Shown one piece after another: positions 1,277-9,803 of a DNA stretch of 15,824 bases (position 1 is the first letter of the stretch; the number at the start of each line of letters is the position of its first letter). The position numbers and the translations under genes were made by a program. The notes beneath the pieces were generated by a model, which had not been told where the DNA came from, did not search any database, and saw only the letters and a list, made by a program, of their open reading frames with translations. Origin of the DNA: Nitrososphaeraceae archaeon (GTDB lineage Archaea; Thermoproteota; Nitrososphaeria; Nitrososphaerales; Nitrososphaeraceae); contig DATFEP010000011.1 of the NCBI GenBank assembly GCA_035250975.1, positions 1-15,824 of the forward strand. The letters run 5' to 3'.

Positions 1277-2128
1277 TTATTTTTCTATTGGGTTTCCTAT
1301 CATGTTTCCCCATTCTGTCCATGAACCATCATAGTTACTTACTGAAGGATATCCAAGTAAATATTTCAATACAAACCAACTATGTGATGAGCGTTCACCA
1401 ATCCTGCAATAGCAGATTACCTCTTTATCAGGCGTTACACCCTTATCTCGGTAAAGTTTATTCAGTTCATCTGGTGTCTTGAATGTACCATCATCATTTA
1501 CCGCTTGAAGCCATGGAATATTTTTAGCTCCTGGAATGTGACCGCTTCTTTGAGCATGTTCCATTGGATACTCTGGTGGAGCAGATATTTCGCCATTAAA
1601 TTCCTTGGGAGAACGTACATCAACAAGCACTGTTTCGACTTTTTCAAGCGATCTTCTAACATCAAATAGATAAGAGCGTATTCCTTCATCCGGAGGATCG
1701 GAAACATAATTTGAAGGCGGTACAGAAGGTTCTTCAGTAGTATAATTTCTATTTTCTAATTCCCATTTCTTTCTACCACCATTCATTAATTTTATTTTCT
1801 TGTGTCCATAATATTGAAATACCCAAAAAGCGAATGCCGCGAACCAATTATTAAAATCACCATATAGGACAAGAGTATCGCCTTTAGAAACTCCTATTCT
1901 AGACATTAATGATTCAAATTGCTTTTTATTAATAATATCTCTCCTAGTTTGATCATTGATGTCTTTTTTCCACCAAACCATGTGCGCACCATGAATGTGA
2001 CCACTTTTATAGGCATTTTCAACATCATAATCAACTTCCAAAATCTTTATTTCTGGATTATCCAAATTGTTCGCAACCCATTCTGTTTCGCAAAGCACCT
2101 CTGGATCAAAATATTTGACATTATTCAT
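1277..2128 (-). CDS. Thiosulfate sulfurtransferase (two-domain rhodanese, CysA/SseA type)
   Basis: Motifs Y..GHIHGA, LMNGGRKKW, DVRSPKEFNG, SGHIPGA, active-site loop YCRIGERS and C-terminal YDGSWTEW. Start placed at ATG 2128 (MNNVKY) rather than TTG 2185. Confidence 0.95.
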   Translation of the reverse strand: MNNVKYFDPEVLCETEWVANNLDNPEIKILEVDYDVENAYKSGHIHGAHMVWWKKDINDQTRRDIINKKQFESLMSRIGVSKGDTLVLYGDFNNWFAAFAFWVFQYYGHKKIKLMNGGRKKWELENRNYTTEEPSVPPSNYVSDPPDEGIRSYLFDVRRSLEKVETVLVDVRSPKEFNGEISAPPEYPMEHAQRSGHIPGAKNIPWLQAVNDDGTFKTPDELNKLYRDKGVTPDKEVICYCRIGERSSHSWFVLKYLLGYPSVSNYDGSWTEWGNMIGNPIEK

Positions 2129-2223
2129 TAAAATCTCAATAGATCTTTTATCTATTAAAACATATTGAAAAATATTAAAAAGCAATTAAACACTTAAATT
2201 ATCATAAAATAAGGTTTTTTAAA

Positions 2224-2317
2224 GGGCCGGTAGTTTAGCCTGGTAGAATACCTGCCTTGCATGCTTTCAAGGTAGAGGAAACGTAGGTGGTCGTGGGTTC
2301 AAATCCCACCCGGTCCA
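2224..2317 (+). tRNA. tRNA-Ala(TGC) with a 20-nt intron in the anticodon loop; CCA not encoded
   Basis: Acceptor stem GGGCCGG/CCGGTCC with the G3-U70 Ala identity pair and A73. D arm GTTT..GAAT. Anticodon stem CCTGC/GTAGG with TGC at 2258-2260. T arm GTGGG-TTCAAAT-CCCAC. Removing 2261-2280 gives a 74-nt tRNA. Confidence 0.93.
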
Positions 2318-2366: not shown

Positions 2367-3302
2367 TTATTGCTGTCTTTCCATCAATTTGTGTATTATC
2401 TTTTCTGCTATCACATTTGATCCTAGTTCTTGTGCCTCTTTTGTTTGGGCTCCGATATGGGGAGAACAGATAACATTTGGTAAGTTGAGTAATGGACTAT
2501 TTGTAGGGGGTTCATTTTCAAATACATCTAGTGCCGCTCCAGCTATCTTCATATTTACCAATGCATCATACAATGATTTTTCATCAACAACATCGCCACG
2601 TGAAGCGTTGATAAAAAATGCTGACGGTTTCATTCTCGAGAAAAGTGTCTCATTGAACATGTGTTTTGTTTCAGGAGTGGAGGGTACGTGACATGAAATA
2701 AAATCGGAACTTTCTACAAGCGTCTGTAAATCGGTAGTTATCATACCAACTTCTTTAATAAATTGGCGATTTATTGGAATAAGATCATGTCCAATTAAAT
2801 TCATACGAAGGCCTCTGGCTATTCTTCCAAGATTTCTACCTATATTTCCCACTCCAACAATTCCAAGGTATTTGCCTTTTAATTCAGTTCCTTTCAATTC
2901 TTTTTTTAACCAGTTACCCTTTTTCATTTCATTATCTGCTAATAATATGTTTCTAGATAATAATAACATAAAGCCTATAACCAATTCAGATACTGCATTT
3001 ATTGCAGATTCTGGGGAATTCACTACTGAGATATTTTTCTGATCGGCTTCATCTATATCAATATTATCTAAACCAACTCCAACTCTTGCAATAACCTTTA
3101 CATTAGTAGCTGCCTGAATTACTTCTTTCGTGATTTTCGTCCTGCTCCTCACAACTAATACATCATATTTGTTAGCTTCTGTAAGTAGCTCAGCCGGAGT
3201 TATGGATGGTTTATTTATCACGTTAAGGCCTCTTTTTGACAAAATTGAAATTCCAATTTCATCAATTGGATCACATATCAATACATTTCCTTGTAATTGC
3301 AC
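2367..3302 (-). CDS. serA: D-3-phosphoglycerate dehydrogenase (short form, no ACT domain) / D-2-hydroxyacid dehydrogenase
   Basis: VVRSRTK, ARVGVGLDNID, GIVGVGNIG (NAD binding), INASRG, LDVFENEP, PHIGAQT.EAQ. GTG start. Confidence 0.88.
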   Translation of the reverse strand: MQLQGNVLICDPIDEIGISILSKRGLNVINKPSITPAELLTEANKYDVLVVRSRTKITKEVIQAATNVKVIARVGVGLDNIDIDEADQKNISVVNSPESAINAVSELVIGFMLLLSRNILLADNEMKKGNWLKKELKGTELKGKYLGIVGVGNIGRNLGRIARGLRMNLIGHDLIPINRQFIKEVGMITTDLQTLVESSDFISCHVPSTPETKHMFNETLFSRMKPSAFFINASRGDVVDEKSLYDALVNMKIAGAALDVFENEPPTNSPLLNLPNVICSPHIGAQTKEAQELGSNVIAEKIIHKLMERQQ

Positions 3303-4460: not shown

Positions 4461-4916
4461 ATGTACAAACATCTAGCTAAAACTTGGATTAACATGTGGA
4501 AAACCAATAGCGAACAATTAAAATCAAGAGCTATTGGCTGGAGAAGAGAACTTGCTATTCATAGAATTAACAGACCTAGCAGACTTGATAGAGCAAGAAG
4601 ACTGGGATACAAAGCCAAACAAGGGATTATTGTTATTCGTACTAGAGTAGGAAGAGGTGGAATGAGAAAGCAAAGACCGAGAGCTGGAAGAAGACAAAAA
4701 CACAGTGGTGTTGTACGTATCAAACAGGCAATGAATATGCGAATAGTTGCAGAAAGAAGAGTTAATGAAAGGTACCCTAACATGGAAATAATTGGTTCAT
4801 ATTTTCTATACAAAGATGGAAAACATTCATGGTATGAAGTAATTTTAGCTGATCCTAACCATCCATCTGTATCCAACGACAATGAAATGCGTGGAAAATT
4901 AAAGGCTTTTGCGTAG
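4461..4916 (+). CDS. rpl15e: 50S ribosomal protein eL15 (short form)
   Basis: RPSRLDRARRLGYKAKQG, RVGRGG, AERRV..RYPNMEIIGSY, DG.H.WYEVIL.DP.HP. Confidence 0.96.
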   Translation: MYKHLAKTWINMWKTNSEQLKSRAIGWRRELAIHRINRPSRLDRARRLGYKAKQGIIVIRTRVGRGGMRKQRPRAGRRQKHSGVVRIKQAMNMRIVAERRVNERYPNMEIIGSYFLYKDGKHSWYEVILADPNHPSVSNDNEMRGKLKAFA

Positions 4917-4980
4917 GAAAACTAAATTTATTATTTTTGTTTCGTTTATCACAAGATACTAATAAAGATAACACGTATGA

Positions 4981-6216
4981 CTATTTGAGACTGGATCATA
5001 ATTGAATATTCAATGAAATAAGTATCATGCTGCCAACAATAGAAGGATGCAATCAATGGTTATGTCCCTAACTTGTGTTTGATTGCTCTGAGATTATATC
5101 TTTTAGTTTTACAGTTATAATATACATTTATCCGGTATAGCAAGACTGACAATAGTACCGATCCACAAGTCTTATCATATCCTCTTAAAGGTAACGGATC
5201 TCTATCCCAAAAAGAGATATGATATGTTCTATCAGTCGTTTAATTGGCTTTAATTCTCAACGAGTAGATAGTCTTTGCAATATTAGATTGACAAAATTCA
5301 ACTAGTTTGATCCTAACATTAGGTATATTTTCATATCTTTATACTGTGCACTAACTCAGATCCCATATCTGTGCTTATTATACAGTTTATTATCATCAAT
5401 CATATCCAGGATCTGCAGACATATACGATCTTTTGCTGACGATTGTAACTGGTAGACTTAATGTTAATTTATCATACATGTTATTGTCTGCTATGTTGGC
5501 AGTTGTAAAATCTGCTGTTAATGATACAATAATAATAGCAGAACCACCAGTACTTGACGTCAGGTGTAATTTTTATCCAAATATTCAACCCTTTGTATGA
5601 CTAAATCCTCATCTTTAATCTGTATCAATATAAATGCCAGAACGTGATACTACTGCTACGCCTTCAGTTATAAATATAAGATTCGTGCGACATATCCTTT
5701 AGTCTTGATAAGGTACTGTTATCTGTTGAAACAATGTATGGATCAACTAAACTATTTTCTCTCATACAAAAAAGTTCTCTCATAGCAGTAATCCTGTTTT
5801 TTTATATCTCGAAATATTGTAGAGACATCTGTCAAATGTTATTCTACATGGTACTCCTGATAATCCACGCACTTTCATTACCTTTCTTTCTGTTATATTG
5901 CAGATGCATTTCAAGGTATTGATACAATGCTGTTGGAATCTAATCGAAACCATATACATAATGTAAAGCATCTTAATTAAGATAACAGTTAGAGAATAGA
6001 TATATGGTCTGCCACGTCTTTTGTTATTTTTATCTGGTCATGGCCACCTAATTAATCCAGTCAAATACAAAATATGATGAGAATAAATGTTGATCTATTT
6101 TGTGCTGGTTTGTTGGTTAGGATGATTGTTTTTCACCAAAACATCATACTCCAAGAGATAGCTTTATTTCTTGTTAAAATAAAATAAAAAAATAATTATG
6201 ATCCCGCCTCAACTAG
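4981..6216. mobile_element. Decayed insertion sequence (~1.24 kb, DDE_Tnp_1-type, IS5/IS982/IS4 clan) bounded by imperfect 23-bp inverted repeats
   Basis: 4981-5003 CTATTTGAGACTGGATCATAATT versus the reverse complement of 6194-6216 CTAGTTGAGGCGGGATCATAATT (20/23 identical), enclosing transposase remnants. Confidence 0.82.
5060..6136 (-). pseudogene. Transposase pseudogene with multiple stops and frameshifts
   Basis: Minus-strand fragments in the expected order: RRGRPYIYS (~5993-6019), RITFDR, SGIYIDTD*R*GFSHTKG*IFG*KLHLTSSTG (~5546-5640), ADFTTANIADN, YMSADPGYD (~5399-5425), LIEHI, DPLPLRGYDK..VLLSVLLY..VYYNCK, ending LGT* at 5060. The 63-aa ORF at 5780..5971 is one fragment. The 5' boundary is approximate. 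Confidence 0.82.
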
Positions 6217-6603
6217 CTAAAACTTAAGTTTCTCCTGAATTTTTTTTATAATACCATGTAATTCGTCGCTAGATATTTCTCTCTCTATCGTAAGATAATA
6301 GATTAATCCATTCCTCATAAAACTAACAATATTTACTTTGGAGCTCTGTAATAGAATAAGTTCTGTAGGTCCAATAGATTCCTCATAATTTTTTCTTATA
6401 TTGAATATCATTGAGTGAAGAAAAAATTCATTTCTTGCCTCTTCAGGCCTCAATAGTGGAACCAGTCCTGATTTCATCTTGCCAGCAAGCGTTCTACCAA
6501 ATTCGTTAGTGATACACACATAACGCACATTTAAAGATAGTTCAAGCAATTTCTTACAATACTCTCTTAGTTCGATAATTCTGTCATTATTTTTGCTGCT
6601 CAT
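6217..6603 (-). CDS. Roadblock/profilin-like small protein (DUF6659-like, common in Nitrososphaerota)
   Basis: Pattern CKKLLEL..NVRYVCITNEFGRTLAG...GLVPLL..EE and C-terminal beta strands followed by an amphipathic helix. Family assignment is from recall, not a search. Confidence 0.7.
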   Translation of the reverse strand: MSSKNNDRIIELREYCKKLLELSLNVRYVCITNEFGRTLAGKMKSGLVPLLRPEEARNEFFLHSMIFNIRKNYEESIGPTELILLQSSKVNIVSFMRNGLIYYLTIEREISSDELHGIIKKIQEKLKF

Positions 6604-6695: not shown

Positions 6696-7352
6696 TTAAT
6701 CATATGAATTGTCGGCTATTTTCTTCAAAATCCCCATTGCATCTAATTCTTTGAGGCTTTGCCTTTGAGTAGAAACGAAATTGTGAAAGTCTTCTATACT
6801 ATCCCTTCTATCGGAATAGAGTTCAATAGATTTGTTAACTATATTTTCGTAACTCCTAAACGGAAAATAAATTTTCTTTGCAGTTCTGGTAATTAACTTC
6901 TTTGTTTCCTTATCAATTATTCCTTTTTTAAAAGCAAGAAATAAATTATATCTTATATCTATCATAGCCTCTGAAAGAAGGTTATAAGAGTTATCAAATG
7001 TTACCGCTACCTCGTCATCTGAATTTATTATATTCTTCTTGAATAGTTCAAAAACTCGTCCATATCCCTTCATTCCAAATTTTTCTAATTCAACTGCGCG
7101 TAAAGCCCCAAGACTCGAGGCGCCGTACACTTGAAAATTATTTTTATTTACTACCTGGAATACTTCTATGGGAGTAGGAGGATAATCTTGTAAGAATACA
7201 CCATCTATTAAAATAATTATCTTTTTTTCTGATATTAAACTTAGTTTAATGAAATCACCTTTTTTGGCAGGAGGTAGAAATTCTGCATTTATTATCTTTC
7301 TTGCTTTTTCTATAGAAAAACTGGGACCCAAAAAAACGACAGGAATGGTCAT
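6696..7352 (-). CDS. tfuA: TfuA-like protein (YcaO partner in thioamide formation)
   Basis: VFLGPS, PPAKKGD, LIDGVF, GASSLGALRAVEL, GMKGYG.VF, DDEVAV, LSEAMIDIR, YFPFRSY, LKELDA. Its start overlaps the ycaO stop (ATGA at 7349-7352). Confidence 0.95.
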   Translation of the reverse strand: MTIPVVFLGPSFSIEKARKIINAEFLPPAKKGDFIKLSLISEKKIIILIDGVFLQDYPPTPIEVFQVVNKNNFQVYGASSLGALRAVELEKFGMKGYGRVFELFKKNIINSDDEVAVTFDNSYNLLSEAMIDIRYNLFLAFKKGIIDKETKKLITRTAKKIYFPFRSYENIVNKSIELYSDRRDSIEDFHNFVSTQRQSLKELDAMGILKKIADNSYD

Positions 7353-8686
7353 CTAAAATATCTCCTTGCTCTCCATCCCATCATCGATTTTGTAAATTTA
7401 AATGTCTCCAAACCAGGTACAATTGCCCTAACCACAGGAACTTTTATCTTGTTATTAGTAAGATCTATTATTATGGCCTTGTTAAGGCCAACTCTCTTTA
7501 ATTTAGATATTATTAAATTTATATCATCAAGAATATCATCATTTTGATGTGTAATAATTTTAGAAAACCTAACAACGTCTTTAGATGGCATAAACTGCCA
7601 TGAGGATTTATCATCTGAATTATTTTCACCGTACTTTATTTTTCTTAAATCATCCCTTGCTCCTTGTATATTTGCTGCCCTAGTTTGAGATACCTCTGTA
7701 ATAGCTCGCAATAGAGCTATTCTTTTATCAGGATGAGTCCCATGTCCCTCAGCCAAATATCCATAGTTATCAGATACCCATTCCACACAGGCTACATTGA
7801 AGGTTGGAATTTCCAGATCTGATGTTACATTTTTCGTGATTAGACGAATATCATGTTTTTTGAATCTTTGTACAAGGTTCATTATTGGCTGAAAATGAAC
7901 ATCAGAAATATCAACATCTGGAAAGATCCTATAGTCATCAAAGAAATCATTTTTTGAAATTATTTTAACATCGAATCCATTATTTCTTAAAGTATTGGAA
8001 AGATTATATAATAGATGAAATGGAATAGCGCTGCATCTTAGTTCTGCTAGACTAACGGCATCTCTTTCAATTACCTCACACAATGAATGACAAACAGCTT
8101 CTTCAAATACGTTACCTGAAGCTAATCCGTTCGTATGGTGGAAGGCAAAGGGATTGACAGCTGGGTATGAAGGGCTATATCTAAATAATGCCAAAGAAGA
8201 AGGGACTAATACATTCTCTCTATTAATTATATCAAATCCTTCAACATAATCCATCACCATAGTATCTTGAAAATCGTATGATAGTGGTTCTACTAATTCC
8301 TCAGGATGTAAAATATTATACCTATGGGATAATTCTTTAAATGTTCCGCGAAACATTTTTTTTGTAAAGGAACTTGGTAACGATGAATACCTTTCAATAC
8401 TTTCCATTATTGCACTTGCTTTAGCATGAGCTTTAGTTGGACCTTTGCCACTATAGACCCAAATATAATCTTCAGTTCCAGGTAGAACAGATGAATAATT
8501 GGGTATATATAATTTATCCATGTATGTGATATCTGCTAATCTAGTGAGACCGATTTCTTTAGATAGATGGGAGACCTGCTGGAGCGTTTTTTCTACAGGA
8601 ATCGTTCTCGATGTTCCGTTTACGGTCCATTTTTTTTGACTCTTTAGATCCAATTTGAGAAAACTATCTTCGTAAGTTCTTATCAA
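7349..8686 (-). CDS. ycaO: YcaO-family ATP-dependent amide-activating enzyme, thioamide-forming (TfuA-associated) type
   Basis: GLTRLADIT.MD, SGKG...AKASAIMESIERYS, TNGLASGN..EA..H.L.EVIERDA, G.G.HPD..IAL.RAITEVSQTR...IQGARDD, VPVVRAIVPGLE. No C-terminal PxP motif of azoline-forming YcaOs. TTG start. Confidence 0.96.
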   Translation of the reverse strand: MIRTYEDSFLKLDLKSQKKWTVNGTSRTIPVEKTLQQVSHLSKEIGLTRLADITYMDKLYIPNYSSVLPGTEDYIWVYSGKGPTKAHAKASAIMESIERYSSLPSSFTKKMFRGTFKELSHRYNILHPEELVEPLSYDFQDTMVMDYVEGFDIINRENVLVPSSLALFRYSPSYPAVNPFAFHHTNGLASGNVFEEAVCHSLCEVIERDAVSLAELRCSAIPFHLLYNLSNTLRNNGFDVKIISKNDFFDDYRIFPDVDISDVHFQPIMNLVQRFKKHDIRLITKNVTSDLEIPTFNVACVEWVSDNYGYLAEGHGTHPDKRIALLRAITEVSQTRAANIQGARDDLRKIKYGENNSDDKSSWQFMPSKDVVRFSKIITHQNDDILDDINLIISKLKRVGLNKAIIIDLTNNKIKVPVVRAIVPGLETFKFTKSMMGWRARRYFR

Positions 8687-8707
8687 GCTTACGAATTATG
8701 CATTAAG

Positions 8708-8717
8708 AATATATATT
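8708..8717. promoter_or_regulatory. Palindromic TATA-like element shared by divergent ycaO and the 58-aa ORF
   Basis: AATATATATT is a perfect palindrome centred at 8712.5, ~26 bp from the ycaO TTG (8686) and ~27 bp from the small-ORF TTG (8740). This matches archaeal TATA spacing for leaderless mRNAs in both directions. Confidence 0.6.
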
Positions 8718-8739
8718 ACATGCAGCAAATTAAGATAGT

Positions 8740-8916
8740 TTGAGCTCTCGTCAGAAAGAAGCAGAAATAATTAGTGAGATTCTGCTGAAGGCTGCTAGTG
8801 AACCGGAGTTTCGAAATGTTCTTATCAAAGATTCTTCTTCAGTTCTAGAAAAATATGATATTTCGAATGAGGCAAAATACATAATTAAAAAGAGTATCAT
8901 AGATCTAACACAATAA
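8740..8916 (+). CDS. 58-aa NHLP/Os1348-like (RiPP-leader-like) small protein
   Basis: TTG start (in-frame TAA at 8731) gives MSSRQKEAEIISEILLKAASEPEFRNVLIKDSSSVLEKYDISNEAKYIIKKSIIDLTQ*, ending in three consecutive TAA codons. The segment ILLKAASEPEFR..LIKD...VLEKYDIS matches the KA..DP.FR..L..DP...L..Y.LS pattern of nitrile-hydratase-leader-like peptides. Not in the ORF track. Confidence 0.78.
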   Translation: MSSRQKEAEIISEILLKAASEPEFRNVLIKDSSSVLEKYDISNEAKYIIKKSIIDLTQ

Positions 8917-9803
8917 TAATAAAAGGTTGAAGAAAGCTTTGTTCTAAAGATTGGACTTTTAATTATCTCTAAAAATAAATAACATAAAATTGATTTATGA
9001 AGGCAAGATGAGGTAATTAGTTAGATAAATATGAACACATCATGAGTGTACCCCGCCTCTGACTCACAACTATTCACAGATAGCCTTACACACTTGGTGT
9101 AATCCTCCTAGCGTTTTTTAAACGGGGTTGACTTTAAGACGTATCGACGAATATATGAATCATTGTTATTTCTTCCTAATTCAACCATATGCTTAAAAGG
9201 CACTAAAGGTTATAATTAGAAGTATAAAATAATTATTAAAGATATTGGAAATTATTTTGGAGAATATTTTTTCCTTTTATAAAACAAGAAATAACATTGA
9301 AATTATAAAATTCTTAAACAGTTAAAACAAATGTAAAAAATAATTATTAAAACCCTTTACATTATTTGTCCGATATATCCATAACATTGAAAACGACTAA
9401 AACCCATCATAAAAGAATCTTATATTTTTGGCACGTTTGCGGGCATCAAAAGAAAGATGACAAATATGCAAAACACCTATATCAAACATGTGCAATGTAC
9501 TAACCGGCATATTCAAGTGATCTCAATAGACATCTTTTGAGCGATTCTGAGATTATTTTCATAAGTAAAAATGTCAATTATATTGTCAAGAAGAATACTG
9601 GCGACAGGACAAATACAATATACTTTTTAACTATTAACCTACACTTGAATCCCTAAAAGATCAACTAGTTTGTGTTATACAACGAAATATTATATGCACA
9701 CGTGACAAACTATCTTTTTAGGTCTTTGAATTATTGTTAGGCAGTATAACCATTATCTGTAACCAAATTAAGCGATAAGTTTCCGGTGCAAGGATCTTGT
9801 AAT

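Follow-up and report, generated by a model that had tools for sequence, protein, structure and literature searches.

The contig DATFEP010000011.1 of the Nitrososphaeraceae archaeon assembly GCA_035250975.1 (15,824 nt, analyzed over its whole length and called the window below) carries the adjacent enzyme genes ycaO and tfuA and, head to head with ycaO, a gene for a 58-residue protein. We suggest, giving the reading about an even chance, that these genes form a three-part thioamidation system of terrestrial and thermophilic families of ammonia-oxidizing archaea (AOA), and that the small protein is the dedicated partner of YcaO and most likely its substrate. An earlier note, made from the sequence alone, had pointed to an intact ycaO and tfuA with an ATGA overlap and to a divergent 58-residue open reading frame (ORF) 53 bp away; the coordinates and strands of the pair are as claimed, and the ORF list bears out the divergent gene.

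Both enzymes are recognized by Pfam, YcaO as PF02624 (1.7e-70; 238.3 bits, cut-off 25.7), in two stretches with an insert between them, and TfuA as PF07812 (2.4e-35; 121.4 bits, cut-off 30). The best-scoring curated families for both are the models for thioglycine formation in McrA of methyl-coenzyme M reductase (MCR), and both enzymes fall below the cut-offs of these models: YcaO reaches 270.8 bits with the McrA-glycine thioamidation equivalog TIGR03266 (cut-off 365), and TfuA 203 bits with NF033432 (ThioGly_TfuA_rel; cut-off 235.2). YcaOs of two further families, f4 and f9 in our numbering, and the second YcaO copy described below score 279–288 bits with TIGR03266. The best solved relative of YcaO is Methanocaldococcus jannaschii MJ1094 (PDB 6pe3; 7.9e-41), and the AlphaFold2 model of the window YcaO has a predicted local distance difference test score (pLDDT) of 84.2. 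Also below their cut-offs are the matches of YcaO to TIGR03604, the SagD-type cyclodehydratase that forms azolines in thiazole/oxazole-modified microcins (133.7 bits, cut-off 219.25), and to NF040716, the uL16-modifying YcaO (32.8 bits, cut-off 700). The last 15 residues of YcaO hold no proline, a proline-rich C-terminal motif being what we take to be the mark of azoline-forming YcaOs, and window scans found no E1-like or dehydrogenase partner gene of the azoline type beside the module. The earlier note was thus right that the C-terminal PxP is absent and that the enzymes are of the thioamidation type, the latter with the proviso of the equivalog cut-offs. From its coupling to TfuA and its nearest families, we infer that YcaO forms thioamides.

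The host is an ammonia oxidizer of the Nitrososphaeraceae, as the earlier note had supposed, because its genome (2.49 Mb in 91 contigs, of which the window is one entire contig) contains archaeal amoA (1.1e-118) and because mcrA (PF02249, the MCR alpha domain) was not found in it at 94.6% completeness, in a search that did detect control methanogens. The same result, amoA present and PF02249 not found with positive controls detected, was obtained for each of three genomes, the host included (G000, G027, and G032), and related records are named as metagenome-assembled genomes (MAGs) of Nitrososphaeraceae or Nitrososphaerales. The host genome encodes one TfuA and two YcaOs. The second YcaO (G000:C87:46025-47395; 473 residues from the longest ATG ORF within a 487-residue open frame) is 53% identical to the window YcaO and has the same insert; it lies between a phosphoribosyltransferase gene and a 342-residue ORF of unassigned family, and neither TfuA nor the small ORF is encoded within 1.5 kb of it. 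Of 25 genus genomes, just 2 showed a second copy.

The association of the small protein with YcaO and TfuA is seen both in gene order and in distribution. Among the best 80 public loci encoding the small protein, its gene faces ycaO head to head at a distance of 52–109 bp in 38, and tfuA accompanies ycaO in 37 of these; the arrangement recurs in families f4 and f9. The other 42 loci show no YcaO in the fetched flank. Unlinked loci are mostly labeled Nitrososphaera sp., and all five unlinked-type Nitrososphaera genomes that were checked carry TfuA elsewhere. In a sample of 301 genomes of the order defined by GTDB, with the small protein counted at E<1e-5, TfuA and the small protein were found, respectively, in 73 and 72 of 73 genomes of family f1 (including G281, a flagged unpublished genome), in 9 and 8 of 9 genomes of f4, in 10 and 10 of 11 genomes of f9, and in 3 and 0 of 10 genomes of f12; all other families of the order had neither, including f13, a large amoA-bearing family (0 of 73 for both). 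Discordant results came from G071 and G108, whose contigs break off within ycaO, and from G317 and G129, which are 88% and 67% complete. Representatives of f4 and f9 carry amoA, and mcrA was not found in them. Six f13 matches and one f12 match to the small-protein profile (E of 5e-4 to 9e-3) were partial and lay inside frames of 140–467 residues, and were taken as chance.

A lineage-specific insert distinguishes the YcaOs that keep company with the small protein. Window YcaO residues 218–262 face only about 11 residues of MJ1094, and an alignment of YcaOs shows an insert of about 38 residues, which the AlphaFold2 model folds into a helix (220–235) and a loop directly after the helix of the EVIERD motif. 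The insert is present in every f1, f4, f9, and second-copy YcaO aligned. It is absent from 3 of 3 aligned f12 YcaOs and from 12 of 12 YcaOs of family f26, in which profile positions from about 207 to 246 are skipped. In a tree of 26 YcaOs, midpoint-rooted for drawing only, the insert type (11 rows) and the MCR type (15 rows) form separate groups with 100/100 support, and the f12 YcaOs fall with the MCR type despite their membership in the order of the ammonia oxidizers. All three TfuA-bearing f12 genomes contain mcrA, amoA was not found in the one of them tested, and the one f12 locus scored, from an mcrA-bearing genome, exceeds both McrA equivalog cut-offs (492.1 bits for YcaO and 270.8 for TfuA). 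Outside the order, a phylum sample of 301 genomes showed TfuA only in f26 (24 of 24 genomes) and in three f52 genomes; mcrA was present in five of five tested TfuA-bearing genomes of these two families, and the small protein was found at none of 12 f26 ycaO loci.

The McrA-type pair (TIGR03266/NF033432, with MJ1094) is one of the nearest known systems. It shares with the window pair the adjacency of ycaO and tfuA, which holds in f12 and f26 loci too, and presumably the activation of an amide with ATP and the delivery of sulfide by TfuA. The window pair differs from it in scoring under the equivalog cut-offs that the f12 pair of the same order passes, in a host without detectable mcrA, in its membership in the separate YcaO group, and in its insert and small partner, both of which the MCR type lacks. 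The f12 loci (L122–L124 and L141–L143) come from small genomes of 1.0–1.4 Mb that contain mcrA along with the McrA-type ycaO-tfuA pair, the latter flanked by a conserved unassigned ORF of 370–380 residues and a NifB-like radical S-adenosylmethionine (SAM) gene. Their McrA sequences read RLGFYGYDAQD[QH]; the small protein contains no glycine, and we set aside the idea that it might carry a target motif resembling that of McrA.

The small ORF behaves as a gene in its own right. It is present in 24 of the 25 YcaO loci of the genus (host included), the sole locus without it beginning inside ycaO, and ycaO itself was found in all 24 other genus genomes searched. Identity within the genus is 79–98% for the small ORF, above that of YcaO (66–95%) and TfuA (65–96%), and its start codon is TTG throughout the genus loci, with GTG in one. 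Among 22 sequences, variable sites number 20, 11, and 51 at the first, second, and third positions of the 58 codons, and the mean ratio of nonsynonymous to synonymous polymorphism (pN/pS) over 231 pairs is 0.14. By these measures the small ORF is a real and strongly constrained gene, in line with the view that it is conserved. The protein contains neither glycine nor cysteine and has no internal Met, and its monoisotopic mass is calculated as 6610.546 Da, or 6479.505 Da once Met is removed; its AlphaFold2 model (pLDDT 91.8) consists of four helices (3–20, 22–30, 32–36, and 43–57), and members of its family are 57–62 residues long and end right after the last helix. The most conserved motif is AASEPEFR. 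Most surveyed genomes hold one copy, four having two or three matches that are partly weak or partial, and the one longer or fused form seen, a protein of 138 residues, is probably an over-called frame, which is weak evidence for the absence of fusions. Contigs from soil RNA libraries (four runs of four studies) cover parts of all three genes, and one covers 8767–9184, that is, codons 10–58 of the small ORF and 268 nt downstream.

Prediction of a complex between YcaO and the small protein gave interaction prediction scores from aligned errors (ipSAE) of 0.79, 0.75, and 0.78, compared with 0.00 for the best of three controls; the pLDDT of the partner was at least 87 across the runs, and at least 95% of the contacts agreed. 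In calibration, the ipSAE mark was attained for 58 of 80 solved complexes and for 2 of 110 mismatched pairs, figures that hold only roughly here because our own alignments were used. The predicted contacts join YcaO residues 222–253 and 444–445 to residues 4–29 and 44–58 of the small protein, so that the lineage-specific insert touches the AASEPEFR motif and the C-terminus of the small protein lies against the C-terminus of YcaO. The model thus supports binding of the small protein to YcaO.

The relationship of the small protein to the leader peptides of the nitrile hydratase-like (NHLP) clan is visible at the level of profiles. The description "NHLP-like" in the earlier note is weak for the single sequence, which remains below the cut-offs of TIGR03793 (14.1 bits, E=0.032; cut-off 50.9) and of NF038399, the Os1348 family (15.2 bits; cut-off 40), but it is supported for the family, whose profile (A1) matches two kinds of PDB entry: alpha chains of nitrile hydratase (1.7e-5 to 0.01) and the "NHLP leader peptide family natural product" 9cjx (0.013). 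Searched against 1.84 billion representatives, the family profile gave 147 matches at E<=1e-3, 29 of them at E<=1e-10; seven of ten scanned matches of the A3 profile pass the TIGR03793 or NF038399 cut-off, and every core-family member that bears a name is a protein labeled hypothetical from a MAG of Nitrososphaeraceae, Nitrosocaldaceae, Nitrosopolaris, or "Thermoproteota". The Atlas neighbors of the small protein are Os1348 clusters (0.79–0.80), which we take as a lead only. Judged by these profiles, and at that level only, the small protein belongs to the NHLP clan, of which it would be a new, short, leader-only branch. With the NHLP/proteusin and Os1348 families it shares the helical motif A-x-x-D/E-P-E-F-R...L, and it differs from them in being single-copy, conserved over its whole length, and devoid of a Gly-Gly site, an appended core, and a C-terminal NDIRI-type motif; the arrangement of leader, Gly-Gly site, and core was not found in it. 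The nearest bacterial branch, the Os1348 relatives, has a conserved C-terminal core that the small protein lacks. On three metagenome contigs (L144–L146), bacterial Os1348-family proteins of 71–73 residues with a conserved C-terminal D-I-R motif are directly preceded by a cassette of an ATP-binding cassette (ABC) ATPase, a carbamoyltransferase-like ORF of about 565–596 residues, a methyltransferase-like ORF, and a radical SAM enzyme (3 of 3 loci, the gene names being read by eye from ORFs and the shortest contig showing the cassette only in part), and YcaO occurs in none of the three.

If the three genes form one system, a mechanism can be proposed from what is known of their families. YcaO would activate a backbone amide with ATP, and TfuA would deliver sulfide. 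The sulfide would probably come from a thiocarboxylated carrier of the ThiS type whose gene lies outside the window, a route of delivery summarized in passages of PMC13063428. On C44 the host genome does carry a ThiS-like gene, and on C43 a ThiS-ThiF-like frame, so that the absence of ThiS and ThiF proposed earlier is true of the window but not of the genome. The small protein would dock through its leader-like helices, with the AASEPEFR motif on the YcaO insert, and would receive the thioamide at a residue other than glycine. The site is probably close to its C-terminus, where the peptide SIIDLTQ is the leading candidate; once modified, the mini-protein would remain intracellular and would not be cleaved and exported. 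We favor the role of substrate because the known domains of the NHLP clan belong to substrates and not to enzymes as subunits, according to passages of Haft 2010 (PMC2887384), and because the model brings the two C-termini together.

Several observations weigh against this proposal. The small protein is predicted to be helical to residue 57, leaving no free peptide for an active site, its C-terminal tail differs from family to family, and glycine, the residue modified in McrA, is missing from it. The ATP-binding helices of YcaO are not among the predicted contacts, and the score of the complex is the model's own confidence, built on our own alignments. A Foldseek search of the PDB gave no significant match for the small protein (best E=1; the proteusin precursor 8tb1 at E=2.5). 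Its gene is unlinked from ycaO in 33 of the 80 public loci, each with at least 2 kb of upstream sequence. The co-occurrence rests on three families and few independent events, because f1, f4, and f9 are related. Lastly, the sign of transcription given by the soil contigs is weak because RNA libraries may contain DNA, and the contigs come from relatives that are 95–99% alike.

The serious rival, though we think it unlikely, is that the small protein is a free-standing, leader-like subunit seated on the YcaO insert that is itself no substrate and that activates the enzyme or recruits another cellular protein as the target of thioamidation. We take such an adaptor seriously because the compact fold leaves no free peptide or core and because the tail varies between families, conservation peaking instead at the predicted interface; in addition, the gene is single-copy, part of the core genome, and unlinked in one genus, as would be expected of a housekeeping factor, and the only two proteins with a proven thioamide, MCR and uL16, are both large and cellular, according to passages of PMC13063428. 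This rival has yet to produce a candidate for the second substrate, and both of the grounds given above for a substrate, the known role of NHLP-clan domains and the modeled position of the C-terminus, tell against it. A related and doubtful proposal, to which we would assign perhaps a quarter of our belief, is that the small protein is a leader acting in trans, an obligate specificity or activation subunit that redirects an McrA-type thioamidase either to a non-glycine residue of the small protein itself or to another core protein; if true, this would add a third class to the protein thioamidations found in nature and would be the first case of a leader in the style of RiPPs (ribosomally made peptides with post-translational modifications) that has become a separate housekeeping protein. 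That the small gene has nothing to do with the enzymes, being for example a small regulator that shares a divergent promoter while YcaO and TfuA alone modify some other protein, is improbable. Small genes divergent from operons often encode regulators, the gene is separated from ycaO in the unlinked loci just mentioned, and its NHLP-family scores are under the cut-offs, but the small protein and the YcaO insert occur together and are both missing from the mcrA-type systems, the predicted complex has an ipSAE of 0.78 where the controls have 0.00, and no DNA-binding family was matched at E<=0.01 by the window protein or at E<=1 by 20 family members.

Thioamitide clusters such as that of thioviridamide bring together a TfuA-associated YcaO, a small ORF with a variable core, and genes for tailoring, proteolysis, and export. 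The first two of these elements lie side by side here as well, and the NHLP-clan domain of the small protein is leader-like, yet we consider it very unlikely that the locus is a cluster of this kind in which a 58-residue precursor is thioamidated, cleaved, and released. The window has no protease, exporter, or further tailoring genes; the small protein is not rich in Cys, Ser, or Thr (it has no Cys at all), lacks a Gly-Gly site and a variable core, and is under purifying selection along its whole length; it is present, mostly as one copy, in nearly every genome of three families; and it is surrounded by syntenic housekeeping genes, in the core genome and not in a variable island. The nearest bacterial relatives, of the Os1348 family, have a C-terminal core and other enzymes, with YcaO in none of three loci. 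The minimal RiPP precursor that the earlier note entertained as one option is hard to reconcile with a protein that is mostly single-copy, conserved from end to end, and folded compactly into helices, and whose gene lies apart from ycaO-tfuA in one genus. The software antiSMASH does label such loci "TfuA-related", and eight are counted in Thaumarchaeota in passages of Malit 2021 (PMC8120280). An equally slight probability attaches to the view that YcaO performs a chemistry other than thioamidation or that the pair is a functionless relic. The scores of both enzymes under the McrA equivalog cut-offs would allow it; the tight coupling of tfuA to ycaO by the ATGA overlap, the intactness of both genes in 24 of 24 genus genomes searched, and the RNA-library contigs over both all argue against it, and the presence of TfuA in 73 of 73 f1 genomes would need another explanation if the pair were a relic.

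The thioamidation system that we favor would not be the first sign of these enzymes in AOA. Passages of Nayak 2017 (PMC5589413) place AOA homologues inside the methanogen YcaO clade, and the TfuA clusters counted by Malit 2021 belong here too. The expression "uncharacterized archaeal thioamidation system" used earlier therefore goes too far for the enzymes, which are already in print, and remains apt for the rest: we found no publication that describes the small partner, the insert, or any substrate, in a search that did not extend to the supplementary files of Nayak 2017 and Malit 2021, where candidate precursors may be listed. The small partner and the insert thus appear to be new. As passages of a 2026 paper (PMC13063428) have it, only two proteins, MCR and E. 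coli uL16, have been characterized with a backbone thioamide, and further protein substrates of YcaO are to be expected. The E. coli enzyme, as presented there, resembles the proposed system in acting on a cellular protein at a non-glycine residue and differs from it in having no TfuA and in carrying an extension of the tetratricopeptide repeat (TPR) type. [quoted passage not shown] The module also illustrates how an McrA-type enzyme may have been retargeted through an insert and a leader-like partner.

Table 1. Positions of the module genes and other features in the window.
Feature	Positions	Strand	Description	Source
Tandem rhodanese	1277-2185	-	Outside the trio	Pfam
tRNA	2224-2317	+	94 nt	Rfam
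2-Hydroxyacid dehydrogenase gene	2367-3302		Outside the trio	Pfam
Inserted segment	4981-6216		1,236 bp, probable non-autonomous mobile element	
128-residue ORF	6217-6603	-	Downstream of tfuA; family unassigned, without Pfam or NCBIfam match	
tfuA	6696-7352	-	218 aa; ATG start overlapping the ycaO stop	Pfam TfuA, ORF list
ycaO	7349-8686	-	445 aa; TTG start at 8686	Pfam YcaO, ORF list
ycaO insert, codons 218-262	7901-8035	-	Lineage-specific; helix 220-235 and loop; predicted docking site for the small protein	
Divergent spacer, ycaO/small gene	8687-8739		53 bp	
AT-rich box in spacer	8708-8718		aatatatatta	
Small-protein gene	8740-8916	+	58 aa; TTG start; head to head with ycaO	ORF list
Conserved non-coding element	9047-9133		About 70-87 nt	

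The ATGA that joins the tfuA start to the ycaO stop occupies 7349-7352 (tcat on the plus strand). The start of ycaO is ambiguous: an in-frame TTG at codon 12 (position 8653) would give a protein of 434 residues, database homologues are mostly 434–435 residues long, and residues 1–9 have a pLDDT below 50 in the AlphaFold2 model, so that translation may begin there rather than at 8686. The AT-rich box in the spacer lies about 27 bp from each TTG start and, going by general knowledge of archaeal promoters, may be a shared TATA element that gives rise to leaderless transcripts in both directions.

Pfam scans of 20 window ORFs identified housekeeping neighbors, namely eL15, PheS, PheT, a class I Trp/Tyr-type tRNA synthetase, a RidA-like protein, and a cytidylyltransferase, and no gene for a protease, a transporter or exporter, ThiS/ThiF, or MCR. 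The earlier list of absent genes is therefore correct for the window except for its dehydrogenase, as a 2-hydroxyacid dehydrogenase gene is present outside the trio. Nor is the module an "islet", as it had been called: its neighborhood is syntenic core genome throughout the genus, and G+C is flat across the window (0.27–0.37). The 128-residue ORF downstream of tfuA is 46–96% identical among genus loci and absent at the loci of other genera, and its membership in the module is doubtful. In one genus member (L063) the flanks are swapped around the 128-residue ORF, tfuA, ycaO, and the small ORF, the four genes being apparently inverted as a unit. The tandem rhodanese, 4.5 kb from tfuA, resembles 3-mercaptopyruvate sulfurtransferase (123.5 bits, cut-off 250) and is a possible candidate for the sulfur donor of the module; of the 38 loci with YcaO, only 2 showed it, although the fetched flanks of most may end before it.

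Other elements of the contig were also noted. The conserved non-coding element begins 130 nt downstream of the small ORF, in an otherwise unconserved spacer, and is 84–90% identical in 22 other genus loci; it contains a hairpin in which two pairs are kept through double changes, and contigs of three RNA libraries cover it wholly or in part. It has no second copy in the genome and no Rfam match (8900–9400 scanned). The inserted segment, bounded by 23-nt inverted repeats that are 87% complementary, is extra DNA between eL15 and the 128-residue ORF relative to other members of the genus. No ORF of at least 70 residues was found in it, and a scan of 4900–6250 gave no Rfam match. Three further near-full-length copies (about 72% identity) and two partial ones occur elsewhere in the genome, and the segment is probably a non-autonomous mobile element. 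ARAGORN reported no tRNA in the window. The Rfam tRNA match scores 54.9 bits, and the tRNA probably carries an intron, because the match spans 94 nt compared with the 71 positions of the model.

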